A stretch of 62,585 nt of DNA, filler included, from Jimgerdemannia flammicorona (Eukaryota), in NCBI GenBank assembly GCA_003990765.1. It is 2 parts of 2 records of this genome, joined end to end, with 100 filler letters (N's around TTAATTAATTAA, not from the genome) between each part and the next. Parts side by side here need not be neighbours in the genome. Positions count along the whole stretch, not along the records: positions 1 to 31,259 come from RBNJ01000406.1; 1 more part is not named here. The stretch is one strand, 5' to 3'. This document shows positions 5,411 to 62,585 of this stretch, piece by piece (positions within the stretch are counted from its first letter, which is position 1; the number at the start of each line of letters is the position of its first letter). Under the pieces are notes generated by a model. The model saw only the letters and a program-made list of their open reading frames with translations. It was not told the DNA's origin and searched no databases. The position numbers were made by a program, and so were the translations under genes.

Positions 5411-8400
5411 CTTATAATGAAAACCTAAGCTGCTTATTTCTTTGATATCATCTCTGAATAGTTATTAGAAAAATATATAAATAAGAATAACTCTATAACT
5501 ACCTATATAAGTAATAGTGCCTAGAATAAGCTATTACTAGAGTATATATTATCCTTATAGCTCAAAGATCAAGAGATGACAGAAATAACAATAAAGGAGA
5601 TAAATGATACAAATTTGAGAAGTATAAATTCTAGAATAAGTCCTCAAAACTACAAAATGGATTTAAGAAACTATTTATAAGAAAGTGAAAGAACTTATAA
5701 AAAAAGAAGTATGTTTTTATTAAAAAAAAAGAGGATATATATCTTACAAATATCCTGATAAAAAGAATAATATAAATAAAGAACCATTCTCCTCTCATAC
5801 CATTACTATAATAGAAGATAATTCCAAAGAAATCTCTGAAAAAAATCAAGGTCAAGAGATTCTATATTACTGCAAAAATCTCAAACAAAGTATATGAATC
5901 TAATACTGACTATGATCTCTACTCTAGTATAAAGATAACCATCAAACTAGAGAAGTGGATAATTATTAGTACAGGTATTAGAATAGAAGTCCCCAAATAT
6001 ATCTATATCTATTTTGTAGAAAAGAGTAATCTGACCAAAGAAGAGAGACTTGGTATAGCTGAAGAAGTTATAGATCAAAGATTCAAAGGTGAGATTAAAG
6101 TTCTACTATATAATACTGAATAAAAGACTATCAAAATTACATATGGAAAACAAATCACCCAAGCTATATTAAGGCAATATATAATGATCTTGAAGTTGAG
6201 AAAATAAATGAACTATCATCTTCTGATAGAGGAGAAAAAGCTTTTGAATTAACAGAAAAACACCCTGATAAGGCTAAAAAGAAGACCAAGATAGTGAAGA
6301 TTATCTATATTAAAGAATCTCAAGACTAAGATCAGAAATAGTATCAGTATATTACTAATAGATATATCTCCACAGAACAATACTCTCATGAAATCATAAT
6401 ATACTATTTTGAATATATAGGAGAATGTATTATATATATTCTCAAATTTAAGAAGTATAAGTCAACTATCTCAGAACAATAGGATGAAGAAATCAAGAAC
6501 ATCAATAATAAAGATAAAAAACACAAGATTAGAAAGAAGAAACTACTCTAGAAACAATTACTACCTTGTAAAAAACTAATATAGAATATATCCACCTTTA
6601 AGGAAAATTAAAGAAAATCCTATTGAAGTTCTTATCAATACAGGAGTAAACAAATACTATCTTGATAAAGAAACTGCTAATAAATTTTACCTCAAGATAT
6701 AAAGAAATCTCAAAGGAAATATTACTATATTCAGAAATAGAATAATACAGAAACTCACCAAAATATATAAGAATATACTTCTATAACTTAGAAATTATAT
6801 CTCAAGGCAAACCTTCCACATCATATACTTTCCTAAATATAATCTCATTTTTCGAAAATCCTGGCTCACTCAGAAAAATCTCTATATCAATTGGCAAACC
6901 AATGCAATCTCTCTAAGAGATATTAAGTTACAATCTGAGCATACTAAGAAGAAATCAAAGTCTAGATATGATATTATATCCACTATCCAGATAAAGAAGC
7001 TGATTTGAAAACTAGACTAGTATATTTATATATATGTATATAGTTAAGGAGATCTCAGAAGAAGATGATAAAGAACTTTTCAAAATTCTGAAGAATAAAA
7101 ATAATGAGGAAGACAATATCTAAGAACTACTTAAGGAATACAAAAATATTTTCCAAGAACCCCAAGAACTACTACCAATCTGAGCAGTAGAATATAGTAT
7201 TGAGACTATTTCTAATTCAGACCCTCTCCACTATAGAATCTATTGACTAGCCTAATCTGAGCTAGAGATTCTCAAGGAATTAGCAGAATTAATAAGTAAA
7301 GATCTCATTTATCTATCAAAATTATCATATAGTACACTAATCCTTTTTGTTTACAAGAAAGATAAAAGTCTCTATATATGTATTGATTACTAAGCACTCA
7401 ACAAGATCTCAATTAAGATTCAATATATACTTATAAGAATTGATGAACTACTTGACTAAGTATATAAGGCCAATATCTTCTCACTCATTGATCTCATATC
7501 TAGATACTACTAAATTTATATCAAAGAAGAAGATATCTCCAAGATGGCCTTTTGAATATTTAGATACTATAAATTCTATATGATACTATTTGGCCTTACT
7601 AATATAACAGCAATGTTTTAAATACTGATAAATGATATTTTTTGAAAATATCTTAGAGTATTTATTCTGATCTATCAAGATGACATCTTGGTATATGGTA
7701 TAAATAGTATTATCTATCAATAACATCTATGTATGAATGATCTTTGACATACTCTGTAAATATAAGCTCTCAGTAAAAAGAAAGAAATACTACTTCATCA
7801 AGAAGAAAATTGAATACCTAGGATATATTATCTCAAAAAACAGTATTTTTATTAACTCTAAGAAGACCTAAGCAATCTGTAATTGATTTATTCTAAAGAT
7901 CCTCAAGTTTCTATAAGGATTTAATAGACTAGTAGGATATTATAAGAGATTTATTTAAGGATTCTCTACAATTGCTACCCTACTTATAAGTCTTATCAAG
8001 AAAGGAGCCAATATCAAAAAAGAATAGACAGAAGTCTACACTATAACTATAAATACTCTTAAGAGAATACTGACTGATGCACTGATCTTGATCAGTCCTA
8101 ACCTAATAAGACTCTTTGTAAATATGTACTACTGATACTTCAAATATTGTTATTAGAGCTGTCCTAACTCAATATAAATACCCTATCATCTATCTGTTCC
8201 ATAAAATCAATGAATATAAAAGAAACTATACTATATTAGATAAGAAACTCTTTGCTATCATCTGATCTCTGCAAGTATAGAGATACTTTCTTTTTGGCAA
8301 AATATTACCTTATAGACTAACTATTAAGCTCTCTAATATATTCTGATATAGTATTTTAACAAAATATATCAATATATTATCTGAGACTTCTACTAGTTGA

Positions 8401-11512: not shown

Positions 11513-14500
11513 TTTGGGGGCTCAACTAGGAAGATGTTAAAATCAATATAACTTTTCTACTCATAAGAACCTATAGTCAAACTGGATACATTTGATATAA
11601 CTCCAATCTCTGCTACTATAGGAGAACTAGTCATTACTAGCATTTAGACAGAAAGAGAAGTAATCACTTCAAGACTTACCAACTACCCAGTATCAGAAGG
11701 ATCTCAACCAGAAGCCAGTATAATACAGAATCTCCAGCTAATACTAATAGAATTATTATAAGACCAATCAGACTAACTAGATTATATAGATAGCTCTGCC
11801 AGAGTTTTTGATGAGCTTGAACAACAACTTGAAGACCTTATTGAATAAGTCTAATTTTCTGCAGAAGTCTTACTAATTTCATCTATTGAACCTCTACCAC
11901 TAGCTATTATAGGACAAAAAGACTAAGAAGTAGCTTCTTCAAGAATACCCAGACCTATTCCACCTTGCTCAAGATCTCTAACACCATCCTCAGGATATCT
12001 AAGTGTCTCAAACTCCAGTAACAATTCAGGAAGTGAACCAGAATCTGAATCTGAACCAGAGTTGGAATCTGAACCAGAACTAGAATCAGAAGATAGTAAT
12101 GATGAAATGGCCACCCTATTGCTAATCTTTACAGAATACTCTAAAGAAGACCCAAGAGAATTTCTTAATAGAATTAAAGAAATTACAGCTCTGAAGAACC
12201 TTACCTTTAAAAGGAAAATTGCTATCTATAAGGCCCAACTCAGAGAACCAGCCAAAGGAATTTTTACCTGAGCAAGGAATGACCTAAACTCAGACCTTAG
12301 AGCAGCCATCAATATAGTACTAACTTGGCTAGTAGAATATGAAGCTATGATATATTGGCTTATTGAGAAGTATGCAGAAAATGAGACCTGTTTTAAGACT
12401 TAAGAATCCATCATAAGAATGAATATGAATATTAGAGAATTACAGAGGGTATTTTTTATAAAAATTCAGAAGAAAATATATATAGCTGGATTCAATGTCA
12501 CTAACTAAGACATTATAGATCCAATGACCTTTATGAATGGAATTCTGCCAAATATTGCTCAGCATGTCCACACTCTAGGTATCAGAAGGTCTGAAGAGCA
12601 AGTAGATATAGCTCAAGGATTTTTCAATGTCAGATAAGGAACTATCTAGAGTGATCATGATAAGAAGAATGACAAAAAAGACATCCTGGTCAAAGCCTGA
12701 CAAGGACTCCTTTAAGGACAGAAAAGATCTGAAGAAAGAAGATCAGCCAAAAAAGGAAAGAAGAATAGGAGCAAAATTTAAGCCCTTAGTTCTAAGTTAG
12801 ACTAATTGGTTGAACAGATTGAAAAACTCACTCTATATAAAAATCAGAGTTATCAATAAGATAATAGATGATATCTACTATAGAGGAACTAAGGTTATCT
12901 ACTCAGAGATAATAAGAGCTACCAATAAGAAGAAAGAAGATACTCTGTCTGAGATAGAGCCCAAGTCCAATGCTTTTACTATAGTTAATTTGGACACTAT
13001 GTCACTGAATATGACAATAAAAGAAGTAACGAAAGGGACTCAGAACTATCTAACTGAAGGAATGAAACCCAGTATAAGGAGACTGAAGCCTATTCTGTTG
13101 AAGACTTTGAAGAGAAAAGTAACAGTGAAGACTACAGTAACCTAGACTTATATCTGGTCAAAGTTATTACTAGAAAAATAGTTTATCTGGAAGAGAAAAG
13201 AAAGAGACCTGTAGGAAGACTATTCAGGAATATTAGCAGAAGAATTCAAGAAAAAGATAAAAAACATAAAGAGAAGCAAGTAGAAATATCTCTCTAATCT
13301 CTCTTATCTTTTATTCTCCAAACAAATGAACTACTCCCAGAAGATAAAAAAATGAAGCAAGAAGAACAGAAACCTGCTGCCCCAAAGTCTAAGAAAAAGT
13401 ATATCCTGAAGACAATGCCTAGAGATATCTATAATGAAATCTAGCAAAAGATTCAAAAAGCTAAGATAGAAGTTCCTCTTTTGCAGTTTCTGTAACTGAT
13501 ACTAGCTGAAGTCTGAAACAAATTGCTGAGGACCACTAGGTCTAGCACTGGCTGAGTTCCAATCCTCCAGCAAGAGTCAGCTCCTACCCCTATTTAAGCT
13601 GCAGAAAGACATATCAATACCTATCTATATAGAGTCATTGGAGGACAAAAGGCGAAATTCTCATAAATACAGGAGTAGCTATCTGTATTATTGCCAAACA
13701 ATTTCTAGATACCCTTCAATGGCCTATTAATGAACCATTCAATCTCAGCATCATTATAGCAGATAGAGTCCAAACACAACTTCTTAGAGAAGTACAAAAC
13801 ATTACCATCTCTCTGGGACACATTCAGTTCTCTATTCTGAAAGCTATTGTTACTAAAGCTGTTACTTATGATATAATTCTTAGTACTAACTGGATGAAGA
13901 AGATGAATGCAGTTGTTGATATCAGTCAACAAGTACTCAAGTTTGACTACTGAGAGAAGAAGTATAGAGTAAAGATGACTAGCTATGAGTAATCAAAGAA
14001 AAAGAAAAAGATCACTATCTAGGAAAAATATGCCAGCAGCAAAGAGTCTACTATAGAAGAGAAAGAAGAATTCAAAGATAGAAATGACCCCAGACTCAAT
14101 CCTCAAATCAACTTAGTAAATGATAGTCCAGAAGACAATATATAGACCAGAAATACTATCTCTATTATAATTGGAGCTATTGTAGGAAAAATCAAAGGAT
14201 GCTCCACCTGTCTCAAAAGATACAAGTGTTCCAAGCACTCCTCCAAGATTATTGGAATAAGAAATCCACCTGGCACAGCCTGTCCTGAGTGTAGAAAAAG
14301 AAAGAAGAAATACAGATATGTATATTTCAGAAATACTTATAGCCAAAGCTACAGAAGTATAAGTAATCTGGTGTCAAGAATCATCTGAGGAAAAAGAAAT
14401 CCCTGAACAAGAGATTCCTGAACAGAAAGTATTTAAAGAAGAAGAGATCCCTGAACTCATTCTCTGAGATAATTCTCACTGAACACTATCTGAAGATAAT

Positions 14501-24200: not shown

Positions 24201-24811
24201 ACAAAACACGATCCTCGCTTACCTCGGTACGACGAGTTCTGACAGCCCACTCACTACCAAAACGGTCTCGTGTCGATACGAGGGCGCAAGCATGGCGAGA
24301 ACAATTGACCTTATCAGCAACAAGTGACAGATCGTGTAAGTACCCACCCCCCAACCCCGACGCCCTAGCATTCCATCAGCACCCGAGGTCGAGTCGTCAT
24401 CGTAATGCGCTTTGAACCACCGCTCTCGTAGGTAGGAGGCCGTGGCCACGTTTGTGCTGGGATAACTCGTGAGGATGAAGGAGATGAAGTCGTGACATTG
24501 CGGCAATGTGCAAGATAATGTTCTCGAAGACCTCCGGTGGGAAGTGGTTGATGGCGGAGGAGGCGGGGCGAGTGGGACGTACTTGAGAGTACAGACCAAA
24601 GATGGTGCCTGAGGTGAACAGGAAGGGTGTTTATCATGCAGTTGTCTTATATTGAGTGGGGGTTATGGATGATAGAAAGCAGTGTTTAAGATACCTTACA
24701 AAGCGTATATTGTTAGATCGATTATCGGATGCCCAGGGTTAGGGTTGGGAATAAAGTTTTATTAACCGACATTTGACCATTTGACACGTTGCTCTTAACA
24801 CTTAAACAAAC

Positions 24812-27800
24812 ATGCCAACACTGCTCACGACCCAGACTGCGCTGAATCTCATTGGTATATTTGAACAGAGTGAACTGTTGATTGTAGCTGTCTGACGAGT
24901 TCCAACTGACAATCTGTGCGTATTTGCCTCATCCATCTGTTCAACTTCAGATATTAACGCTGAGGGTGTACTCGCGCTGGCGGAGTCTCTGAAGCAGAAC
25001 ACCACCCTTACCCAGCTGGATCTCGAATGTATGTCGGAAATCAGTTGAATGTTGGTGAATCGATCTAGCTGACCTGTGCGTATTTGTATATACATTTTTC
25101 AGCAAATGGCATCGGCGATGAGGGTGCCCGTGTTCTGGCCGAATCTCTGAAGCAGAACACGACCCTTACCCAGCTGAATCTCGAAAGTATGTCGGAAGTC
25201 AGTGTATGACTGTTTGAATGTGGGTGATTCGATCCAGCTGACCTGTGCGTATTTGTGCATTTTTCAGGGAATAGCATCGGCGATGAGGGTGCCCGTGCTC
25301 TGGCCGAGTCTCTGAAGCAGAACACGACCCTTACTCAGTTGAATATCTCCTGTATGTCGGAAATCAGTATGTGACTATTTGAATGTTGGTGATTCGATCC
25401 AGCTGACCTCTGCGTATTCATTTAGATAACTTTATCGGCGCTGAGGGTGCCCGTGCTCTGGCCGAGCCTCTGAAGCATAACACGACCCTTACCCAGCTGA
25501 ATCTCAGATGTACGTAGGAAATCAGCGTGTGACTTTTGAATGTAGGTGATTCTATCCAGCTGACCGTGCGTATTTATGCATTTTTCAGCGAATAACATTA
25601 AAGATGAGGGTGCCCGTACTCTGGCCGAGTCTCTGAAGCAGAACACGACCCTTACCCAGTTGAATCTCTACAGTATGTCGGAAATCAATGTGTGACTGTT
25701 TGAATGTGGGTGATTCGATCCAGCTGACCTGTGTATTCATAGATAACAAAATCGGCGCTGAGGGTGCCCGTGCTCTGGCCGAGTCTCTGAAGCAGAACAC
25801 GTCCCTTACCCAGCTGAATCTCGAATGTATGTCGGAAATCAGTGTGTGGCTTTTTGAATGTGGGTGATTCGATCCAGCTGACCTATGCGTATTCATAGAT
25901 AACGAAATCGGCGCTGAGGGCGCCCGTGCTTTGGCCGAGTCTCTGAAGCAGAACGCGACCCTTACCCAGCTCAATCTCGAATGTATGTCGGAAATCAGTG
26001 TGGGACTGTTTGAATGTGGGTGATCCGATCCAGCTGACCTGTGCGTATTCATAGATAACGAAATCGGCGCTGAGGGTGCCCGTGCTTTGGCTGAGTCCCT
26101 GAAGCTGAACATGACCCTTACCCAGCTGAATCTCGAAAGTATGTCGGAGATCTGTGTGTGGCTGTTTGAATGTGGGTGATTCGATCCAGCTGACCTGTGC
26201 GTATTCATAGATAACGAAATTGGCGCTGAGGGTGCCCGTGCTCTGGCCGAGTCTCTGAAGAAGAACACGACCCTTACCCAGTTGAATCTGGAATGTATGT
26301 CGGAAATCAGTGTGTGGCTGTTAGAATGTCGGTGATTCGATCCAGCTGACCTGTGCGTATTCATAGATAACGAAATCGGCGCTGAGGGTGGCCGTGCTCT
26401 GGCCGAGTCTCTGCAACAGAATACGACCCTTACCCAGCTGAATCTCGGAGGTATGTCAGTAATCAGTGTGTGGCAGTTTGGATGTCAATGATTCCATCCA
26501 GCTAACCTGTGCGTATGATAGATAACCAAATCAACGCTGAGGGCGCCCGTGCTCTGGCCGAGTCTCTAAAGCAGAACACGACCCTTACTCAACTGAATCT
26601 CCGAGGTATGTCGGAAATCAGTGTGTAACTGTTTGAATGTGGGTGATTCAATCCAGCCAACCTATTGCGTATTCATAGATAACGAAATTGGCGCTGAGGG
26701 TGCCCGTGTTCTGGCCGAGTCTATGAAGCAGAACACGACCCTTACCCAGCTGAATCTCGGAGGTATGTCGGAAATCAGTGTGTGACTGGTTGAATGTGGA
26801 TGATTTGGTCCAGCTGACCTGTGCATGTTTGTTCACCTATTCTCTGTTCATCTTTAGAAGTCGACATCGACGATGAGATGATAAATGCCATAAATATGGC
26901 TCTGAAGCGGAATGAGACATTACTTAAATCTAACATCAATGGTATGTCAAAATTATGAAACAGTTGCCAATAGTTTGAGCCACAGATTTTATATTTGTTA
27001 AAATTTGTTTTCAAGGTTGGTTGTATGTACTGCTATCTTATAAAATTAAGCTAAACATTTTTAATTCTGAACCTTTTCAATCTTCTGGGTGCATACCTAT
27101 AAAGTTGGGCAAACCAGCCAGGAATTAGCTGCAGTACGCCAGAGGTTGAAACAACAGCTCGAACGAAATCTGAAAAAAGACCGCACTGACAAACCAGATG
27201 CAGCCAGGACTCACTGGTTCGCCCACCGATATATTCCTAAACGTCCTCTGCCTGCTATAGACGATGACAACGCGACAGGTAGCAACAATCAACAGCGGAA
27301 GGTCGGCCTAACTTCAACAAATATCTCGGAATCCACAAAACTCGCATATAGCAGCATCATTATGGAAGAATCAGAACCACAGATTCAATCCAATGAAGCT
27401 GAGCCACATGTCTGGATTGTCAATGCCTTGACCACAGAGACCATTCATGAAATACCCTATGAAGATCTTGTAAAAGTTGGTATAATTGGCCGTGGTAACT
27501 ATGGAACAGTATACAGAGCTAGTTGGAAAGGACATGAATCACCATTTGTTGCTGTTAAGGATTTTTTGGATTTGAGCGACATGGTTCATGAAGTTCAAGT
27601 TTTTATAACATTGGGAGAGCATGATCACATTATCCGATTTTATGGTATTACAAAGTAAGTCATCTTATTGTCATTTTAGAATTAGGTATATTGTTGATAT
27701 TGACGATTAACATTTTAATTATTCTTTATAGGAACCCTGAAACAAAGCAATACGAAATTATTCTGGAGTATGCAGAGAGGGGAAATATGCATGACTTTTG

Positions 27801-29976
27801 GGATGTAAAAAAAAACATTTCGTTACCATGGCCAACAAGAATAAAAATGGCATATGGTTTGGCATGTGGATTACAGCATATGCATGCCAAAGGAATTGTA
27901 CATCGAGGTATTTACATTTTTCCATTTATGCTCTGAATGTATAGAGTAGTTCTTGTTCCCTTATATGTTAGTGACAAAATATTATATTTTATTAGGGTTG
28001 GATTGCGAGAATGTTCTAGTCCGCAAAGATGGCTCAGTGGCACTGACAGGCTTCAGTCTGAGCGGACTCACCTGCTCAACGACAAACGCTCGCATCCGGG
28101 AACAGCTGGACTATTATGATGGAGTGCAAGTAGATTTCGAGAAGAGCGATATTTACAGCCTTGGAATTCTGTTGTGGGAGATTCTACATGAGAAGCGTGC
28201 ATTTGAGGATAACTACAATCCAGACCTCCTCGATAATATCATGGACGGCCTCCGACCAGGAATGGACACAGAGACTGTATTACCGATGAAAAATGTCCCG
28301 CTTGATTACATTCGGCTCTATGAGGTATGTTGGGATACCGACATACTTGTTTGGCCTCCCATAGATACCGTGGTGTCCAGGTTGCGAGACCTGAAGTCCG
28401 CCGAAGATGATCGTGACTTCAACTGGGAACTATTGGAGAGCGTCTGGCTAGGCCTAGAAGACCAAAGAAAAATAGGTTCGTGCGTTGAATTTATTACATT
28501 ATTTAATTTCTGCAGTTGGTTCACGTAGGTTATTCAATAAATCTTTTGCAACATATGACAGGAATTGATATCAACAAGGAGCTGGAGCAATTGGGGTTAG
28601 ACATTATTGCTTTTGAAAATCTGTTCTTTACTCAAAAGAATGCTTGCAGGGGTGGGTTTGCAGATATCCATATGGGTGTTTTGAGCATCAAAAAAGATAT
28701 AAAAGTAGAAGTAGCTGTCAAATCGCAACTGAAGCATGCAGCAGATATAATACAAGAAGTGCGAATTCTAAAGATGGTGACAGGTCATCCGAATATTGTC
28801 CGATTCTATGGTATTACAAGGTATGTCTTGATGAATTTCAAATCATTAAAATTCTAATTTTGGAAATATGAAAAATATTTGTGATATGCTCATATAATTC
28901 GCTTTCTATTTCTTTATAGAGATGTCACCTTGAACTATATTGTCATGCACAGGGCCCAATCGTGTCTTCAGAAATATATTCATTACAACAAGGCGTTTAT
29001 TAGTATGCCTTGGGCTGAAAAGGTCAAGATCGCGTTGGATATTGCACAAGGGTTGCAATTCCTTCACCAACACCATATAATTCATTGCGACATGCATAGT
29101 GGCAACATTCTTATAGACGATGTAAGCACATCTCGAATTCCTTATATTTACATTGGCTGAGGACGTATGCTCATTGTCAATTATATTTTTGTATAGGATG
29201 GGTCGGCTCTTCTCACGGACTTTGGGCTGAGCCGAACTTTCGAGGAGGCGCAACGCCCAGAATTCCGAATCAAGATCTACGGCCGACTTGCATACATCGC
29301 TCCTGAACTCTGGAAGAAGCCACCCCCGCCATACAACTACTTGCACGACATTTTTGGCTTTGGTGTCTTGTGTTGGGAGATTGCGTCGTCCGAATTTCCT
29401 GGCAGCAATGAGAGAGCAGTTAACCCTAACCGTTTGAAGCCCCTGCCACTGTGTCCCAGCCCTGAATATCAAAATTTGTACCGATGTTGTGGATCAGCGC
29501 AGCCGAAGGAGCGACCTGAGATGGAAGAGATCGTCAGCATCCTAAAATCGGTACACGAGCAACTCCTCCTGCACTCTGCTCATGGCGTCTCTGTGGCCCC
29601 AGTGGACATTCCGCGCATCACAGAGAATACGATTCCAGACAGTATGCGCCAGAATTTGGATGGTCTAGTTGATATATCTTCATTAGTGTTGGGACCTTTG
29701 ACAAGGGAGGCTACAATTCTGGAAGATGCACGACAGAATTCCAACAGACGAGTTGAGATGTTTTTGTCAACATCAGTGGCCGGTCACAAGCCGTCTGTCC
29801 AACTGCGTGATCAATTCGTCTCTTCGAGAGTAGCAACCGAACGACGCTCAACAGAGGAGGATATGTTGCCTGGTACGATGCAGCAAAATTTGAACATTCC
29901 ATCTGCATCAGAGTCATTAGCAGGGAATGCTCATCCTTCCGAATATAGGAAAAAGGTAGTATATCAGAGAAAATGA
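24812..29976 (+). CDS. LRR-pseudokinase-kinase protein (13 RNI-like LRR exons plus tandem TKL-type kinase domains), 20 exons, about 1191 aa
   Basis: Manual GT-AG model stays in frame: 24812-24854, 24951-25028, 25103-25186, 25268-25351, 25426-25509, 25589-25672, 25743-25826, 25899-25982, 26055-26138, 26211-26294, 26367-26450, 26522-26605, 26679-26762, 26858-26941, 27105-27654, 27732-27907, 27996-28475, 28562-28820, 28920-29121, 29197-29976. LRR consensus xNxIGAEGARALAESLKQNTTLTQLNLx. Kinase 1: GRGNYG, VAVK, HRGLDCEN, TGFS. Kinase 2: VAVK, HCDMHSGN, DFG, APE. The LRR-to-kinase junction (26941 to 27105) is the least certain. Confidence 0.85.
24951..26941 (+). repeat. Tandem array of about 156-bp exon+intron units (84-nt LRR exon plus about 72-nt intron)
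   Basis: Eleven 84-nt exons plus a 78-nt first exon and a divergent 84-nt last exon. Introns share GTATGTCGGAAATCAGTGTG...GAATGTGGGTGATTCGATCCAGCTGACCTGTGCGTATT. Confidence 0.95.
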
Positions 29977-30187
29977 AAATTCATAACTTGGAAAATTTAC
30001 AGAGTGATGTGTTTGATTTGAAATTTCTTATTTTGGCTTTATTGTTAAAATCTTTCTTAATCTTGTATTGATGTAAGAGAGTGTAAATTTTGTCATTCTT
30101 TATTTAGTTTATTTTTGCCAATTGATATATAGTGCATCATACTTATACTCAACCTTTTTTTAATGTATTTTTAAAAAAAAAAAAAAA

Positions 30188-30745
30188 AATTATAAATTGA
30201 TATAAAATTCTATTAAGTTTAATCAAATAGAGAGCTTTTTTTTTATTATTATATATAATATTTTAATAAAAATAGTTTTTTTTACTATTTCATAATAGAT
30301 ATCATAACTGGTCATAATTTTGACCTTAAATTAAGTAATTTCACAAAGCCAAATTAATTAAAAAGGCTATTCATAAAACTGATCACAATTTCAGTAAGTC
30401 TAGGAGTTACTTTTATAAATTATATTAGCTGAATATTTTATTTACTGAGTTCTCCTTTGTTGAGATCTTTTTTACTAAGTTCTCTCTTCAACTAATCTCA
30501 TTCTTACTGAGTTTTCTTTTGCTAATATGAAATAAGCTAATTATATAATATTTTTAAAGTGAAAAACTATAATATTATATTATTATATAATTTATATACT
30601 TAAATTTTTATTACTCCTTTTAACAGATTTAATAATAAATAAATAAAATTATAAATTAATAGAGTATTCTATTAAGTTTAATTAAATAGAGAGCTTTTTT
30701 TATTTTTATATATAATATTTTAATAAAAATGGTTTTTTTACTATT
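30188..30745 (+). repeat. AT-rich direct repeat pair of about 100 bp (about 30188-30290 and 30647-30745)
   Basis: AATTATAAATT...TTCTATTAAGTTTAAT.AAATAGAGAGCTTTTTT...TATATAATATTTTAATAAAAAT.GTTTTTTTACTATT occurs twice. Confidence 0.7.
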
Positions 30746-31106
30746 CTATAACTTAAAATATCATAATTTATAAATCTCTTCTCCTCCATATTAACTATGT
30801 TAAAAAAAATATATTATTAAAAATATATATAGTAAATATTATCTACTTTAATAAAATAGAGAGTTTTTTACTATTTTTATTTTAGTTATAATAATATATA
30901 AATTTAAATAATATAATTATTAGTATTATATATAATATAGAACTGAAATTGTAACTGGTCTTTTACTAAGTTGAATTTATTCTCTCTAGTTATAATTTTG
31001 ATCTTAAACTAATCATTAAAATTGTGACCAACCTTTTATGGGTGTGGATTTAACTTTAAAGATTATGACTGAGAAGAATGTAATATCTATATTTTATTTC
31101 TAACTT

Positions 31107-31108
<2 letters not shown>

Positions 31109-31149
<41 letters not shown>

Positions 31150-31860
31150 ACTCATAGTCTTGTGGATTTTTATTGGAAGAGATCGTAGACTATATAGGCC
31201 AAATCCCTCCCCCACCACCTATCATATATTTTCCTCTCTTTTTTTTTGTTTTTTTTTTTNNNNNNNNNNNNNNNNNNNNNNNNNNNNNNNNNNNNNNNNN
31301 NNNTTAATTAATTAANNNNNNNNNNNNNNNNNNNNNNNNNNNNNNNNNNNNNNNNNNNNCTCCTTCCCTGCCAATCTAATCCTGACATCCACATCGCCTG
31401 TCCTGATAGTCGTCCCCTCCCATATCTGAAAGCCAATGTCCACTATGTCCCCATACTCAGCCATCACCTCCTCTATCCTCCTCCTCGTCTCCTCCTTAGT
31501 CACCGTGGGCACCCCCCTTACCAGAAGCTGCACCACCCTGGGGTCCCACCTCAAGCACCTCACCATGGGGACTGCCACCTCCCCAACCACCACTCCCGCC
31601 TTCAAGGCCTCATCCAGCAGGCCTGCCTCCTCAAATCCCACCTCAACCCCCTCTAGGCCCTTCAAGAACTTCACCGAAGCTGCCCCAGCCATCTGCCTCA
31701 AGATCAGCCCCAGGACCATCTTCGCCGTCACTGCCAAGCCTCGGAAGCACAAGGTGGCCGCGAACTCCGAGATCGACTTCTTGAGCAACGGGGCCACCGC
31801 CAGCCCCGTGACACCATCAGCCAGGTCTCCCTTCCGCATCGGGACCCCCTGCCCCCCCAT
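31109..31860 (-). mobile_element. Young LINE element broken by an assembly gap: poly(A) 3' end (31109-31220) and ORF1 fragment (31360-31860)
   Basis: Poly-T and the shared LINE 3' terminus lie left of the gap. Right of the gap is an uninterrupted GC-rich ORF (VVQLLVRGVPTVTKEETRRRIEEVMAEYGDIVDIGFQIWEGTTIRTGDVDVRIRL) resembling the RRM-like region of LINE ORF1. Confidence 0.65.
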
Positions 31861-38772: not shown

Positions 38773-41700
38773 GATATTTCTTGAGTCGGTTTTGATAAAT
38801 GGTGGTGGGGATTATTGTGCCTGAGGGTTTTCATAGCCAAAAGGTGGTTCCTTTTATATCTTGCACAAGGTAAGGTCCTTCCCACTTGGGCTCTAGTTTT
38901 CGTGACCATGAAGCTTCGATCATATTCCAATACACCAGGACTTTGTCTCCTATCTTGATAATCTCCAGGGGTTTGTGGGTCTTTTCCGCATTCCTCCATT
39001 GTAGTGTCTGTGCCTTCGTTATGTAATTCTCAGTCTTCTTCCTGATTTAGTGTAGTCTCCATATTTCCATGTCTATATGTTTTCATATAGCATCTCCATT
39101 GGATGACAAGGTTCCCTGAGAACATTCTTCTCTGAACAGCATTTCTCAAGGGATAAAGTGGATACTTTGTGATTGGATATCCCGGAGAGTAGATAATGCT
39201 ATTGGTAGATAGTAATCCCAGTTCTCATAGCTATTGCAGATCTTGGCAATAACATTCTTGAGAGTTTTGTTGGTTCTTTCTACTTGTCTGTTTTCTTGAG
39301 GGTGATATGCTGTAGTCTGAATATGCTGGATCTTATACTTCTTGTAGAGAACTTCGAAGAACTGGTTCACGAATTCAGTTCCTCTATCTGTAGTTACTTG
39401 TGTTGGGGTCTTGAACTGGCAGATGATTTCTTTGTGGAAGAAATCGGCGATTAACTATGCATTGGCTTCCATAAGAGGTCCCACTTCTATCCATTTTGTA
39501 AAGAGGTCTACAATAATGATGATGTATCAGTTGCCAGTCAAAGTCAAGGGTAGGGAGCTGATTATATCCATTGCAATGTGGGCAAATGGTACTGGTTCTA
39601 TGTGTGCTGATCCTGGGGCTTGATTTTGTTGATCTTGTTTCTGTTTCTGGCATTTGTCGCAGGTCTTGACGAATTGTCTGATATCTTCCTCCATCTCTGG
39701 CCACCATATTGTTCTTCTTGCCTTGTCGTATGTATTTGTTCCTCCTAGATGGCCAAGTTCATATACTGATTTCATTGCTTACTCCTTTTTGTGTTCTGGT
39801 ATGACTAGTAGTTTTCCTTTCTTCAGTATTTCTCCATCAGTTTCGAATTGTTTCCATGTTCTGTTGATAATCATTTGTGTCCATTCTTCCAGATGTTGGA
39901 GCATCTTTCGCTGTCCCAGGTATATGATAATTCCATAGTAGAGCTCCTTATTCATGGCGATTTTGTGAGGGTGGGGTCCTTTGGGGTATCTGTGAGAGGG
40001 CATCTGTATTGGCATTGGTTCTTCCAGAATGATGTACGATGGTTACATCATAAGCTTGCAACTTCATTATCTATCTGGTATAGATTCCTTTGGGTTGTCC
40101 AGTTGTCAGTAACCAGGTGAGAGCTGAGTGGTCTGTTTGGATGGTGAAGTGTCTTCTGGCCAAGTAGTAGTAGAACTTTTCTACAGCCCAGATGACTGCG
40201 AGGCATTCTAACTTGTAGGATTCGTATTCTTTTTCAGCTCCTTGGGTTCCATGGCTGAGGTATGTGATGACATACTCCACTTTGTCTTTCTTTTGAGCTA
40301 GGACTGCTCCTAGTCCTTGTGTGCTTGCATTGGTCTGTAGGATGAATTCTTGAGTCCAGTCAGGTTTTCTGAGGATGGGTGCCTGGGTCAGTCTGACCTT
40401 GAGTTCATCAAATGCTTTTTGTTGTCTGCCAGTCCACTGGAACTTGGTATCCTTCTTGTTAAGTTTGTAGATTGGTCCCACAATATTAGAAAATCCTCTA
40501 ATAAATCTGCGATAATAGGAGGTGAGTCCCATGAAGGCTTGGGCTTCCGTAACAGTAGTGGGTCTTGGGTATGTGACCACTGCTTGTATCTTGAGGGGGT
40601 CCATGTGTGTTCCATCTCAGTTGATGATATGGCTGAGATAGGAGATCTCGATTTCTGCAAACTTGCACTTCTTGGATTTGATGTAAAGGCCATGTTGTCT
40701 TAGTCTTTCCATTATCTGCTGTATGTGCTGCAGATGTTCCTCAGGTGTCTTGCTGTAGATAATTACATCATCGACATAGACCATCATCCATCTTCCCATA
40801 TTATAGTGGAAGATTTTATTTATCATTCGCTGGAAACTTGCTGGTGTATTGCACATTTCAAATGGCATTTATAGGTAGACGTAGGTTCCGTCTGGAGTGA
40901 TGAAAGCTGACTTTTCACTTGCCATGTCTGTGAGTCCGATTTGGTGGAATCCCAAGTATAAGTCCAAGGTGCTGTAGTACTGTGCTTCATCTCCCAGTGT
41001 TATAAGGATGTCATTGATGAGGGGCAGTGGTTGGCGATCCTTCTTGGTAACCATGTTGAGTTTTCTGTAGTCAATATAGAGTCTTGGGGCGAATTCTCCA
41101 GGCTTGCTTCCTTTTTTCGGGGCTAGTACAACAGGTGAGGACCAGGGGCTGCTTGCTTCTTTAATGATGCCAGCTTCTTCCATCTGCTTGATTTCTTCTC
41201 TGAGCCATTCTCGGTAGGCTGGTAGGACAGGTCTTGCTTTCTGATAAATTGGTTCGGTATCTCCAGTATCTACTTCATGATAGTAGTGTGGGGTCTTTCC
41301 TTTGATATTCTTGAAATCTGTGGCAAGAACATCTTTGAATTCATGGAGTATTTTCTTGAGTTCTTTCTTGAGTGGAAATTTGTTTCTGATGATATAACTG
41401 TGCTTACTTGTGTTTTTCTCCTTCTTATACTTGAGTTCAGTGATCTTGATATTGGCGAATACTTCTCTTCCTATAGATCCAAATTCTTTCTTTCCTCTTC
41501 TTGTGTCCTCCAGCTTCTTGACTTCTATGATCTTTGGTTGTAGGATCAGAAAGATCAACATTTGCACCAATCGGTTCTTCTTCTTGACTGGAAATGGGAT
41601 TGTAGGATTGTGATTCCTAGCAATGAGTAGAATTTCTCCAATATAGTCTGAATCAATGACTCCTCCTTCGATTGTAATTTCACTTCTAGCCAGACTGCTT

Positions 41701-43355
41701 GTCTTGAGAATCCCGACATGGTCCTTTGGGATGGTCATCTTCAATCCAGTTGTAAGTAGGGTGGTTGTCTGGGGTTCCAGTACAGTCTCTTCTACTATAA
41801 TGATGTCCATTCCGGCTGCATTTTCTGACTTATATTCTGGCAAGACTGCATCAGGGTGAATCTTTCGAATCTTGACCTTGATATCTTCTTCATCATCACT
41901 GTCCTCCAGGAGGGCTGGTGGTTCATCATCTTCCTCCTTCTTTTCTTCCTTAATCTGTTTTTTGAGAGCTTTCTGTCTTCTTTCCTGGTGGATCTTCCTG
42001 ATTCCAATGGTGCACTGGTAGCAATCATTAACATGCTCCATGCTGTACATTTTGATCCCATGAGGACAGACTTCTTGTGGTGCATAGCCTTCTGCCATCT
42101 TCTTGCATTATTCTTCTTCACTCATCCATTTGACTTTCTTCTTCTTTGGAATAGTCACTATATAAGCTTCCTCTTGCTCGCTCTCTTCTTCCTCCATGTC
42201 GGGCAAGACTCCTTTGTTGACATTGATGAGAATTTATATCTTCTGTTCCTGGTAAGTGATCTGCATCTTCTGGGCATTGTAATCAATTACTGTCTTGGCT
42301 TTGTGAAGCCACTAATTGCTGATGAGAATGTTATAGTTGGTGGCATTAGTTATGATTATATCTACTGAGATGATTGCTCCTCCAATCTTGATGAAAACAT
42401 CTCGGATCTTTCCCAGAGGTGTGGCTCTTGTACCATCAGCTATGATGAACACCAGCTTTGTTGCTTCTTCTACATCCCAACCTAGGCGGTCTGCTGCCTT
42501 CTTGCTGAGGAGGCATCCTCCTGCTCCTGTATCAATGATGGCCTCAAAGATTCTATCTTTGATTTGGCATATTGCATATGCAGAGGTTTTGTGATTATCC
42601 TCACTTTCTTCTCCTAAGTCCTCTTGAGCATTATTGGCCTTGGTTATCTTCCATCCCTGTTCCTTAGTTGTTTCAGCAAGTCCAAACCTCATTTGCTATC
42701 TGAATGTTGGGATTTCTGCAAGCTGACCAAAGGTTGCATTAACCTTTTGTTGGCTGAGGTCCTTGAAGATATCATACTTAAAGGTTTTGGTCTTGCGAAG
42801 CTTCTTCTCTTTTTCTCCTTCACTGGCTAGAGTGGTTCCTCAGATGATATCTTGAACTGCTTGCTCCAGCTCTGTATCTTAGTCCATCTCTTCGACTTGA
42901 CTTTCTGTGGCAGTTTCCATCTGCTTTTCTACTGAATTCTTTTTGGGTCTTTCTGGTGATCTCTTGTAGTGTTCTTTGCAAGCATCCTTCTTGGTGGTCT
43001 GAGCAGGATAGGCCTCCCATTCTTCTTCATCAGAATCTCTGATCTCCTCGAAGGTAATTATATTGGCCTGCTCCTTGTTTCGTGTAGCATTACTTGGTTG
43101 AGCCTTGTGCTTGGTTTTACTTATGCATTCATAGGAGTAGTGGCCTTCTTCTCCACAAGTATAGCAGGTACCTTTCTTCTTGTCTGAGGTGGCAGCGAAC
43201 TTCTGAACAGAGCAGCGGTCTCTTCCTCAAATTTCCTTTGCCATGTCTCCCAGGTGGGCAGTCATTTCAGCAAACCTTTTGGTGAGTTCCTCCATAGGGT
43301 CACTGTTCTTTTGCTGCTCTATAGCTTTTGGCTGGGGTGTGTTCCGATTGATCAT

Positions 43356-51746: not shown

Positions 51747-52529
51747 TCATTTCTTTGCCTTCTTCTTCTCCGCCTCCGAGTCCTCCGATTCGTCCTCCCT
51801 CGGCCTGGTGCGCGATTTGGGCGAGCTGTCGTTCTTGCCAAGTAGCGAGGGCTTGTAGTCCGGGCGCGCCGGGGGCCAGTTGAACGCCCCGCCAGCCGAC
51901 GTGGGCGTGTTGGAGAAGTTGAGTGGACTTAGCAGTTCATTCTGTTCGTAAAATTCCGGGTAGAAGGTGCGGGGCGACGGGAGGTTGTGAGCAAATTGTG
52001 AGGGCAGGGCGGAAGGTGGACCAGGTTCACTGTGGATGGACGATGCTTGCGATGTCGGAGGCTGGTGGTGAGTGGAAAGGAAACGTGAATAGGTTAGATT
52101 GAGTTTTCCCTGATTCTATACGCAATATTATTGGCCGAGAAAACATGTCTAAATAGGATGTATGAACGACATATTACCTGAGTAGCGGGTGGCTGTTGAT
52201 TTTCGAGTTCTTTACGAACCGAATCAGGTCCGTGCTGTTGCTGCTGCTGTTGCTGCTGTTGCTGCTGCTGCTGCTGTTGCTGCTGTTGCTGCGGTTGCTG
52301 CGGTTGCTGCTGCTGCGGTTGGGCCTGTGCCGGTTGGGTCGGTTGGTTAGGCTTTTTGTCGTTCCCTTCGGGGATGTGCACACGAAGCTTAGGTTTCTTC
52401 TGCCCCGTCGTCGGGCTGATGCCACTCGGGCTAATTGTGCTGGGAGACATGTTCGCACCATTCGTTGAGGGGATTGGCGATGTCTGTATCGGCGGTGGGA
52501 GAGTACCGTGATGACTTTGTTGCTGCTGC

Positions 52530-52570
<41 letters not shown>

Positions 52571-53438
52571 CTGTGGTGGCATCATTGAGTGGTGGTGATG
52601 AATCTGCTGGTGGTGCTGCTGCGGGTGCTGCTGCTGCTGTTGCTGCGGGATGGTCTGCATTGCGTGAATTGAGGGGGAGAGGTCGTAATCAGCCAGGGCC
52701 GGAAACTGGAGCGCCGGCTCAGGCCAACCCCTGACGTCAGTACGTACCGGAACCATGTACATAGGAGGCTGCTGCTGTGAGGTGTACATATCATAGCCGT
52801 TCGGAGCCATGCTCATCGGGGGTATCTGCGAGCCCATCTGCGCGGTCATAGGGTAAGTGCGAGACCCGTAACTCACCACGGGGATCTGCTGTCTTTGCTG
52901 CTCTGACTCGTAGTCAGCTGCCGGCGGGGGCGTATTGTCGTCGTCGTTATCCTTCTCCGGGTCCGCCGCCGAATTAATGAACTGTGATGAAGTTCAATCG
53001 ATCGATCAATACATGCAACATAGCAACAGATTGATCACAAAGGTTCCGAGGCACATGAAGAATATTTACATCATGATTGCTCCGGCTTTCGTGCGGTTCA
53101 TTATACTCGGTGTATTTCAACAGAATTTTGTCCATATCTGTGCTCGCGTACTGGACGAGTTTGTTGTTGGAGTTGAAGATGATGAGCGCGATCTCGCAGT
53201 CGCAAAGAACGCTGAGTTCATACGCCTTCTTCATCAGACCGAATTTTCGCTTCAGGAAGGTAACCTATAAGAAACAGAACAAACAGAACAGCGAAGCCGA
53301 TAGGCGGAAGGGGGTCAAAATCGCCCTGATGTGGAAGACTAGGAATCGGAAGGGGTGCTCTTGCAAAAAGAGCTGGATATTTACCTGACGGTTACGCTCG
53401 TCCACAATGGTTTGAATTTTTATCTTCTTGCGGCCCAT
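51747..53438 (-). CDS. MEF2-type (Rlm1/RlmA-like) MADS-box transcription factor with polyQ tracts, 4 exons
   Basis: Exons 53438-53385, 53264-53070, 52981-52178, 52061-51747. [18 protein letters not shown]^[63 protein letters not shown] is a MADS+MEF2 domain; C-terminal [23 protein letters not shown] motif. Confidence 0.95.
52236..52645 (-). repeat. CAG/CAA microsatellites encoding polyglutamine in the MADS-box gene
   Basis: (CTG/TTG)n runs at about 52236-52320, 52518-52572 and 52612-52645. Confidence 0.95.
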
Positions 53439-57158: not shown

Positions 57159-57469
57159 GTGTACGTTCCTCGTTTCTCTTATGCAGTGTGGTCATCGTTA
57201 TTGTTGTGAATTGGATGGTTGCTCTAAAATGCGAAACATACAAAGACTAGTTCAAGCGGTGGATCTTGCAAGCCATGTGTTTGAAACATCAGGCAGCCTT
57301 GTGATCATTTAACGTCATACGCTGCATCTCTCTGACGTCGAGCGACTGTATAAAACTGACTCTAAAAAGAAAATATTACATCATACTTTAATCCAACAGT
57401 TGCATACACATAAGAGAAATGTATTGCGTCAGAAACTAGTGTCCTCGGTGGCTGAGCCGTATACGCATA

Positions 57470-58726
57470 ATGGTCACTGACGACGACGAGTCCACCAACC
57501 GCCAGCTCCAAGAGGATGAGTGTCTGGCCCTGGCTTCCATCTTCGGCGACTCAGCTTTCGTGCCGGACACGACTCACCCACACGCTCACGTCCTGACGCT
57601 GGACCTGGACGAGACACAGGACGCGCCGCGGTCGCCGCGGACGCTCCACGTGCGGTTTCACTTTCCGCCAACCTACCCGTCGCGTGATCCACCCGTGCAC
57701 GAAATCACTTCCGTGTACTGCGGCACAATGCGGGTGACGGACGAGATGAGGCGCGCGGTCGACGCTGGGTTCCGTGAGCGGTTCGTACTGGGCGAGGTCA
57801 TTGTGTTCGAGTGGGCAGGGTGGTTACGCGAGTACCTTGAGGAGAGGTTCGCAGAGGAGGCTCATGCGAATGCGGATAGGCTTGGCGACGACGTGGCGGA
57901 ACATGAGGTGGATGAAAATGTGGAGGAGGCAGATAAGGAGGTTAGCCTGCTTTCGACGCAGGAAACCGCAGAGTTGACGAGTGGGCAAGGGGAGGACGCG
58001 GCAGCGCCGCCCATCGCTCATGGAGAGCCGTTGGTCGATCGGAGGTCGATATTCGTAGCGCATGCGGCGCCTGTGGCGAGCCTGGCAGAGGTGCAGGTGG
58101 GTCCTTATGTGGGAGCTCGAGCTGGGGACGATTGAAACGTATGCGACATCATCCTCAACCTTTGTTTGACGTAGGCTGTGATACGTGTGCTTTATGACAA
58201 CAAGCGGATCGCACGAGCGACGCACAACATCCGCGCGTACCGGATCGTGCAGTCGGACGGGCGGGTGTTACAGGATAACGATGATGATGGGGAAACGGCG
58301 GCAGGGAGTGGGTTTTTAAAACATTTCCTTTTCAACATAGTTCGATTTTTTGTGTGCATATGGGTCATTCGTGGCTTTGATCTGTCCGGATTTACCTAGG
58401 CCGGCTCCTGCACCTGATGCAAATCCTCGATGTCAAGAATGTGCTGGTGGTCGTGACGCGGTGGTATGGCGGTAAGTAATCGCGTTGTCCTTCCCCAGAT
58501 TCCGGCGGTTTGATTGCTCTCATATTCGTACGCTCATAGATCTACGTCAATCCCACACTCTTCGCGGGTCTCAGGCATCCAATTAGGCGCGGATCGGTTT
58601 AAGCACATCAACAATGTCGCGCGACAGGTGCTAGAGGAGAATGGCTACTTGGCAGAGGAGGGTGGAAAGAAGAGCGTAGTGGGAAAGAAAGGAGAGACGA
58701 CCAAGAACAAGAAGGGGAAGAGGTAA
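57470..58726 (+). CDS. YIH1: IMPACT/Yih1 (RWD domain plus UPF0029 domain; Gcn2 inhibitor family), 4 exons
   Basis: Exons 57470-58096, 58175-58307, 58400-58471, 58575-58726. RWD motifs QEDECLALASIFG and FPPTYPS; UPF0029 motifs DRRSIFVAH, ATHNIRAYRI, DDDGETAAG, VVVTRWYGGIQLGADRFKHINN. Confidence 0.95.
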
Positions 58727-62556: not shown

Positions 62557-62585
62557 TGAGCAATCTTTTTTTTTTTTTTTTTTTT

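Follow-up and report, generated by a model that had tools for sequence, protein, structure and literature searches.

A predicted fungal gene joining leucine-rich repeats to a pseudokinase-kinase tandem in Jimgerdemannia flammicorona

In JAK proteins, a pseudokinase (JH2) is followed on the same chain by a kinase (JH1), and the pseudokinase keeps the scaffold of the nucleotide pocket. ROCO/LRRK proteins are soluble and carry leucine-rich repeats (LRRs) N-terminal to a TKL-type kinase, and fungal NLRs have near-identical tandem repeats whose variation falls on a few surface positions. The tandem-kinase proteins (TKPs) of plants (RPG1, WTK1-4, and others) are likewise soluble, with a pseudokinase beside a kinase and sometimes an integrated extra domain; in the model of PMC8761531, the pseudokinase serves as decoy or regulator and output comes from the kinase, and the TKPs are presented there as polyphyletic and plant specific. 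Here, we describe a predicted gene of the fungus Jimgerdemannia flammicorona that places an array of LRRs before a linker, a pseudokinase domain (K1), and a kinase domain (K2). It lies on the plus strand of a 62,585-nucleotide (nt) stretch of DNA from assembly GCA_003990765.1, made of two joined parts, which we call the window. We consider it somewhat probable that the LRRs and both kinase domains belong to one gene, from a fungus of the Mucoromycota type, and that its product is a soluble sensor kinase, with its nearest named relatives in Endogone and Gigaspora.

The closest described proteins are four from Endogone sp. FLAS-F59071 (P0016, which is RUS14333.1, and P0159, P0160, and P0161), named "kinase-like domain-containing proteins," with identities of 36-41%. 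They are homologous to the predicted protein over the linker, K1, and K2 and share with it a K1 without the key aspartates, an HCD-type K2, an RGxFADIH loop, and an HWxxH motif. They differ in having no LRRs, unrelated N-termini, and, in some of them, a DUF5615 domain that the J. flammicorona gene lacks. The likeness to plant TKPs is architectural only: there is no orthology with the fungal gene, and none of the TKPs described in PMC8761531 has an LRR array of the ribonuclease inhibitor (RI) type. JAK JH2-JH1 has the same domain order, but the fungal protein has no FERM or SH2 domain and is of the TKL type rather than the tyrosine-kinase type. By analogy, the gene may work like the plant TKPs and JAK JH2-JH1, although it is homologous to neither.

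Other systems are similar in one part of the protein. With the NOD2/NLRC and RIPK2 axis, it shares an LRR unit whose best solved matches are chains 5irm and 5irl and a K1 C-lobe that is closest to RIPK4, RIPK1, and RIPK2, as well as TAK1 and BIK1 (all TK/TKL-like, with modest E-values). This likeness does not go beyond what is generic for RI-like LRRs and for TKL kinases. NACHT and CARD domains are absent from the fungal protein, which holds sensor and kinase on a single polypeptide. We take 5irm and 5irl to be NOD2; the search result names them "Uncharacterized protein." XA21, FLS2, and EFR carry a non-RD kinase of the HCD type (PMC3411088), so that an LRR sensor with such a kinase is common to them and the fungal protein. 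In contrast to the LRR receptor-like kinases, however, the latter has no signal peptide or transmembrane segment, its LRRs are RI type rather than plant specific, and it has an additional pseudokinase; it falls outside that class. It also falls outside the NLR/STAND class, having no NOD domain. Near-identical repeats with focused hypervariable sites are common to it and to fungal NLRs, which are described in PMC10197012 as using NACHT or NB-ARC domains with WD40, TPR, or ANK repeats and not LRRs. Compared with ROCO/LRRK proteins, it lacks Roc and COR domains (no Pfam match of this kind on exon 15) and has 113 amino acids (aa) between the LRRs and K1. A survey of 49 fungal genomes reports almost no proteins with both LRRs and a kinase, namely, four genes from chytrids and five from ascomycetes, the latter intronless and probably of bacterial origin, and reports no LRR pattern-recognition receptors (PMC2939053). 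LRR_6 was not used in that survey, which is older than the mycorrhizal genomes of Mucoromycota. Among the top-ranked matches in the literature, we found nothing on a fungal LRR-tandem-kinase protein or on the Endogone K1-K2 module.

The gene model and the joint between repeats and kinases

Positions 24500-30800 were read for splice sites, with each GT donor paired with each AG acceptor that preserved the frame. The resulting model extends from 24812 to 29976 and has 20 exons with 3573 coding nt (1191 codons) and no internal stops (Table 1). Its 19 introns are 70-163 nt long and all end in AG; 18 start with GTA and one starts with GTTCGT. Positions 24927-24950, within predicted intron 1, are also covered by indel-bearing contigs, making the start uncertain. 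A preliminary description had placed the feature at 27105-29976. The kinase part is indeed there, but the gene begins far upstream, at ~24812, if the tentative exon 1 is accepted. The sequence features listed in that description were each recovered where it had put them. Its proposed architecture, in which LRRs are combined with a pseudokinase and a kinase without a NOD domain or a transmembrane segment, agrees with our profile matches and hydropathy scan. A Kyte-Doolittle scan of the predicted protein found no transmembrane-like segment, the 19-residue mean peaking at 1.14; the N-terminal 20 residues, which are themselves tentative, average 0.37. We found no NACHT or NB-ARC domain in the exons of the gene or in the 76 open reading frames (ORFs) scanned elsewhere in the window (76 of 152 ORFs of at least 75 aa, overlapping and shorter ORFs being excluded).

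Transcript-like evidence came from contigs of two public runs labelled "RNA?" (word shares, 0.19 and 0.13). Contig ends or starts coincide with modelled borders at 25268, 25743, and 26679 (acceptors in the LRR array) and at 27654, 27994, 28561, and 28918-29121, indicating that at least some of the contig material is spliced. The last of these borders, from a contig with 0 differences, match both splice sites of exon 19. For exon 15, exon 19, and the region of the stop codon, there are contigs with 0-2 differences.

The LRRs, linker, K1, and K2 probably form a single gene. The alternative is that two adjacent genes lie on the same strand, an LRR-only gene ending just past exon 14 and a pseudokinase-kinase gene starting at Met 27362, and that the in-frame junction between them is coincidental; we regard this as unlikely. 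The donor and acceptor of the junction intron are both phase 1, as are all LRR introns. Met 27362 is the first in-frame Met after the acceptor, and the 85 codons leading to it contain no stop, which argues against a gene that begins there; the other frames have 5 stops each, and 343 of 20,000 shuffles were stop free. The start of the linker (27119-27232) is colinear with residues 188-217 of P0016 (BLASTP pair, E 0.001), and its HWxxH motif is also present in P0159 and P0161. In the Endogone proteins, this motif lies 185-400 residues from the N-terminus, so that a motif preceding Met 27362 is conserved in proteins with N-termini more than 185 residues longer. Two contigs with ~87% identity begin to align at 27108 and 27110, that is, at the predicted acceptor, but run on upstream for 142 and 119 further letters. 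Their indels within the linker preserve the frame (+3 in one case and +1 followed by -1 in the other). Two genes would, moreover, have to fit a terminator and a promoter into 163 nt, in a region that is otherwise gene sparse.

Base composition can be read in both directions. The GC content of the array exons (0.49-0.57) differs from that of the kinase exons (0.38-0.49), as might be expected of two genes. However, GC content is 0.38-0.49 in the array introns, 0.37 in cap exon 14, and 0.29 in the junction intron; the cap exon resembles the kinase exons, and the junction intron resembles the introns of the kinase part. Thus, the compositional break falls inside the LRR region, before the cap exon, and not at the junction.

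Several further points weigh against a single gene. The joint 26941/27105 was absent among the 15 contig joints listed, of 361. If donor 26942 is read through and the junction intron retained, a stop follows after 5 codons (GMSKL), so that an LRR-only product is possible; Met 27362 could likewise begin a kinase-only product, and the K1 Gly loop (residue 505) is 41 residues past this Met, a plausible kinase N-terminus. At 163 nt, the junction intron is the longest of the model. Among the differences between window and related contigs (the 40 best supported were examined; 435 further exist), those listed in the linker are synonymous in 4 of 16 cases. LRRs were found in none of the 42 nearest relatives scanned (E≤1e-5) and in none of the 4 Endogone module proteins, and among 120 relatives listed from a search seeded with P0016, LRR families occurred only in two plant receptor kinases. 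Since no other relative with LRRs and a kinase was found, the fusion is so far unique and could be an artefact of the model.

The pseudokinase-kinase module and its relatives

All six kinase exons match the Pfam profile PK_Tyr_Ser-Thr (PF07714), which is tiled twice, at profile positions 6-69, 74-126, and 131-254 by the exons of K1 and at positions 6-69, 77-136, and 143-258 by those of K2. K1 contains GRGNYG (27488-27505), VAVK (from 27548), and TGFS (28046-28057) but no APE; its HRG-LDCEN motif (27901-28012) is split after HRG by a phase-1 intron. It had been described as a domain with a Gly loop and VAVK, without both key aspartates or APE, and with an intact frame, and all of these features were found. 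On these motifs, we classify K1 as a pseudokinase, in which both aspartates, the catalytic one and that of DFG, are gone and the beta3 Lys of VAVK is retained. The scaffold of the nucleotide pocket (GxGxxG, VAVK, and the alphaC Glu) is retained as well.

K2 carries HCDMHSGN (29083-29106), TDFG (29215-29226), and IAPE (29296-29307), in accordance with the earlier account of HCDMHSGN, DFG, and APE, together with VAVK and the loop CRGGFADIH. By its motifs, K2 is classed as a non-RD (HCD) kinase of the TKL type. Its C-lobe is closest to let-23/EGFR, DLK, MLKL, ILK, ZAK, and RIPK3 (modest E-values), and the HxD.H..N form of its catalytic loop occurs in 35 of the 129 domains of relatives with a readable loop. 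Its role as an active kinase is called into question by the degenerate Gly loop (CRGGFA) and by a His in the catalytic loop where Ser/Thr kinases have Lys; K2 too may therefore be weak or inactive. The Endogone K2 domains add to this doubt, with HCA in P0161 and GFG in P0016, such that HCD and DFG are each kept in 4 of 5 family members. A complex prediction for K2 of Endogone P0159 with K1 scored 0.01, which gave no verdict and is evidence neither way.

The nearest relatives from named fungi are proteins with several kinase domains, found in Gigaspora margarita, G. rosea, Diversispora epigaea, and Endogone sp. When 101 kinase domains were placed in a quick tree, K1 paired with domain 1 of P0016 and K2 with domain 2, and the search seeded with P0016 revealed three Endogone paralogues that cover the full module. 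A more careful tree was built with IQ-TREE from 32 of 211 domains, those of 13 chosen relatives and of the Endogone paralogues. K1 formed a clade with the four Endogone first domains (UFboot/SH-aLRT, 100/98), and K2 formed a clade with the four second domains (100/99); in both clades, the Endogone domains together are sister to the one from J. flammicorona. K1 and K2 are 22-29% identical to each other. Both contain a phase-2 intron 2 nt after FYGIT (27654/27655 in K1 and 28820/28821 in K2), which had been taken as a sign of internal duplication. The shared intron is present, but it is not a sign of duplication within this gene, since K1 and K2 fall into separate clades with their Endogone counterparts. 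We conclude that the tandem is ancient and not a recent internal duplicate.

An alignment of the five K1 domains revealed HRG, HGS, HGN, HGN, and HCN at the catalytic motif and TGF (once) or SGF (four times) at the DFG site, whereas GRGxxG and VA(V/I)K are kept in all five. All five K2 domains have an RGxFADIH-type loop. The J. flammicorona gene thus has an aspartate-less K1, RGxFADIH and HCD in K2, the HWxxH linker, and a place in the shared clades, which together define the Endogone-type module; on these features, we assign the predicted gene to a so far unnamed and previously undescribed Endogone-type K1-K2 family. The LRR region is not an integral part of this family; 4 of 4 Endogone members are without it. 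Instead, P0016 has a Cys-rich N-terminus, and P0159 and P0161 have ~400 unrelated N-terminal residues. A DUF5615/Mut7-C-like (PIN-like) region follows K1-K2 in P0159 (E 5e-4) and P0160 (E 1.4e-5), in both below or near the Pfam cut-off, and, weakly, in P0016 (E 0.004), and it suggests a putative kinase-nuclease fusion family in Endogone. Because the Endogone members have other N-termini and often DUF5615, the LRR region appears to be one of several swappable accessory domains. In the J. flammicorona window, we found no DUF5615-like sequence, and comparison of the window with the N- and C-terminal regions of the Endogone proteins by tblastn gave, linker motif aside, nothing below E 0.5. Searches of the ESM Atlas with exon 15 and the C-terminal tail returned generic kinase clusters or nothing.

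An exhaustive HMMER search with the K1 C-lobe retrieved 709 proteins at E≤0.001, 3 of them at E≤1e-30. The closest relatives of K1 are metagenomic fragments, with identities of 63% (P0002), 51-52% (P0001), and 55-60% (P0006). All three keep GLDCEN and LTGFSL, and P0001 reads through the same HRG-LDCEN intron. A search for longer homologues yielded P0001 alone for the K1 C-lobe and none from 197 candidates for the K2 C-lobe. Among the relatives retrieved, 64 of 107 have at least two kinase domains, and 13 combine degenerate with active-like domains. Some of them (P0003, P0008, P0013, P0033, and others) have 4-6 kinase domains per predicted protein; for example, KAF0414656.1 of Gigaspora margarita has four, one of them with HCG...GFG, and there are metagenomic proteins with five or six. 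A metagenome scan gave 80 loci, with a best identity of 41%. The only one with LRR-like sequence (L073) was set aside as probably unrelated, since that sequence is uninterrupted and on the opposite strand.

The copy described here might instead be non-functional, an accessory gene that is decaying or was captured by a transposable element (TE). Remnants of TEs do lie on both flanks, and the motifs of both kinase domains are unusual. We nevertheless find this very unlikely. The frame is open through all 20 exons and the splice sites are canonical, and the stretches covered by contigs with 0-2 differences include exon 15, exon 19, and the stop region. In K1, 9 of the 13 listed differences from related contigs are synonymous and 10 of 13 are at third positions. 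Together with degenerate motifs that are common to all five family members, Endogone orthologues included, and to the three metagenomic fragments, these data do not agree with neutral evolution of K1, which had been named as a result that would refute the preliminary description. We conclude that K1, being aspartate-less in all five proteins, is an old, conserved pseudokinase and not a decaying copy.

Variation within the leucine-rich repeat array

Each LRR is encoded by one exon. Exons 3-14 are 84 nt long and exon 2 is 78 nt long, and the introns between them are all phase 1 and, within the array (24951-26762), 70-81 nt long. The exon+intron unit is tandemly duplicated: Tandem Repeats Finder counted 10.9 copies of a 156-nt period (85% matches; score, 2385). 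Of the 13 units, twelve are 28 aa long and one is 26 aa long. When the units were scanned singly at a threshold of E≤0.1, 12 of 13 matched LRR_6 (PF13516; E 3.5e-5 to 0.018), the divergent last unit being the one with no match, and 1 of 13 reached the gathering cut-off (23.4 bits) alone. We defined RI-like LRRs by a tandem 28-residue repeat of the form LxxLxLxxNxIGxxGaxxLaxaLxxN, and the array has this form. A single 27-aa unit searched against the PDB matched 5irm (E 5.5e-11) and 5irl (E 1.1e-10), as well as chains named ribonuclease inhibitor, NLRX1, NLRP5, DRC5, LRRC34, and tropomodulin. These matches place the repeat in the RI-like class found in animal NLRs.

The preliminary description had called the LRR region variable, and comparison of the repeats with their own introns supports variation of a receptor-like kind. 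The twelve units of 28 aa vary mainly at unit positions 28, 1, and 3, the x's of LxL-x-x-N-x-I. The eleven near-identical 84-nt exons have a mean pairwise identity of 0.85, and their introns have one of 0.86. The per-site difference between repeats, however, is 0.54 for the three hypervariable codons, compared with 0.10 for the other 25 codons and 0.12 for aligned intron columns, so that the three codons diverge ~5x more than the introns when repeats within this one gene are compared. At least three nucleotide states occur in 8 of 9 hypervariable columns and in none of the other 75 (Fisher p = 2e-10). For the other 25 codons, the NG86 method gave a dN of 0.072 and a dS of 0.242 (core dN/dS, 0.30). 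With the introns as a neutral yardstick, we conclude that the LRR scaffold is under purifying selection and that positions 28, 1, and 3 change far faster than neutral. What tempers a reading of this pattern as receptor diversity is that hypervariability was gauged among the repeats of a single gene and not across alleles or strains.

Since the internal LRR exons are all 84 nt long with phase 1 on both sides, any one of them can be skipped with the frame kept. Contigs link non-adjacent LRR exons, e.g., 25182 to 25743; such joins could come from skipped exons, from paralogues that have fewer repeats, or from a collapse in the assembly.

Possible function, and the surroundings of the gene

We propose that the N-terminal horseshoe of 13 RI/NOD2-type LRRs would bind a ligand through the three residues of each repeat that are hypervariable and flank its conserved Asn. 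The ~113-aa linker, with its conserved HWxxH motif, would tether the LRRs to K1, which is probably a non-catalytic regulator or docking domain that gates K2, as suggested by comparison with JAK JH2 and the plant tandem kinases. K2 would deliver the output as a non-RD kinase of the TKL type. The likeliest ligand would be a non-self or biotic cue, and the protein as a whole may represent an old K1-K2 core to which lineage-specific sensor or effector domains, here LRRs, were attached. The modular flanks, hypervariable LRR face, non-RD HCD motif, and TE-rich setting all fit a sensor. By analogy with the systems described above, the putative sensor may have a function in immunity.

An ordinary role in signalling has to be weighed against this. 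Here, too, there would be one gene, but its product would be a lineage-expanded kinase whose LRRs recruit an endogenous partner, as in the LRR-bearing adenylate cyclase of fungi or axonemal LRR proteins, with no sensing of non-self. Genomes of Glomeromycotina are reported to contain ~1500 Pkinase_Tyr motifs each and large expansions of signalling genes (PMC9453076, PMC8647823). Given these expansions in arbuscular mycorrhizal fungi and the common occurrence of multi-kinase proteins, including mixed ones, among the relatives, an ordinary role remains a serious rival, and matches of the LRR unit to DRC5, LRRC34, and tropomodulin are in keeping with it. Three surface positions per repeat that differ at ~5x the intron rate, however, form a pattern of diversifying recognition rather than one of a fixed partner. 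The exchange of N- and C-terminal domains around the module among family members and the location of the gene in a TE-rich, gene-poor compartment also speak against an ordinary role, to which we assign a low probability. We continue to favour a soluble sensor kinase.

A broader proposal is that Endogone-like fungi possess a class of NOD-less intracellular receptors for innate immunity or non-self recognition, built on an ancient pseudokinase and non-RD-kinase core with grafted, interchangeable sensors and effectors. The NOD2-type LRR array would diversify by duplication of exon+intron units, and a PIN-like nuclease would be among the effectors. Such a class would be a counterpart of the tandem-kinase and kinase-fusion resistance proteins of plants and would include the first LRR recognition receptor in a kingdom reported to be without them. 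We regard this as possible but doubtful.

In the predicted gene, an LRR array of the animal-NLR type whose hypervariable positions are receptor-like is coupled to a conserved core of pseudokinase and kinase. Its main interest lies in the presence of a NOD2-type array in a fungus, in the diversification of exon units, and in the newly defined core. If the gene is real, more candidates for recognition receptors would be known in fungi, and the tandem-kinase logic that is prominent in cereal immunity would gain a second, independent example. The gene would also provide a tractable model for expansion by one repeat per exon and for diversification of a binding surface.

Table 1. Features of the predicted gene, with positions along the whole window
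Feature	Position	Strand	Basis or remarks
Tentative exon 1, MPTLLTTQTALNLI	24812..24854	+	In-frame TAA upstream of ATG
LRR array, 12 exons	24951..26762	+	156-nt tandem period, splice model, LRR_6 matches
Exon 14, divergent terminal LRR-like cap, EVDIDDEMINAINMALKRNETLLKSNIN	26858..26941	+	Without LRR_6 match
Predicted junction intron, 163 nt, GTATGT..AAG, phase 1 on both sides	26942..27104	+	Splice model
Linker, 113 aa, conserved ELAA..R / HWxxH(R/Q)Y motif at 27122-27232	27105..27442	+	
K1, predicted pseudokinase	27443..28435	+	Exons 27105-27654, 27732-27907, 27996-28475
Interdomain segment (FNWELLESVW...), including intron 28476-28561	28436..28602	+	
K2, predicted non-RD kinase	28603..29556	+	Exons 28562-28820, 28920-29121, 29197-
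C-terminal tail, 139 aa, no recognised domain, TGA stop	29557..29976	+	

GC content along the window is strongly mosaic: it is 26-36% up to 24 kb, 42-49% within the gene, and 50-57% in the last 10 kb (from 52 kb). The LRR-kinase gene lies on the margin of the part that is rich in AT and in TEs. No ORF of at least 130 aa occurs before 23942. Within these AT-rich and ORF-poor first 24 kb, 5815-6120 (+) and 13633-13950 (+) contain degenerate remnants (dUTPase, retroviral protease) of an element similar to the largely intact Ty3/gypsy-type retrotransposon at 39149-43226 (-), which has a zinc knuckle, an aspartyl protease, an embedded dUTPase, a reverse transcriptase, an RNase H, and an integrase fragment. 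Upstream of the gene, an ORF at 24400-24630 (-) contains the string INHFPPEVFENIILHI, F-box-like by eye and without a Pfam match at E≤0.001; it may be a divergently transcribed neighbour. Downstream, a 36-nt T run (31109-31144) precedes two N runs of 44 nt each (31260-31303 and 31316-31359) that are 12 nt apart. The GC-rich part holds a poly-Q-rich ORF without a Pfam match (52097-52993, -) and an ORF with an RWD domain (57440-58132, +; E 1.9e-11), and the window ends in a Trs65 IgD3 fragment (62258-62584, +).

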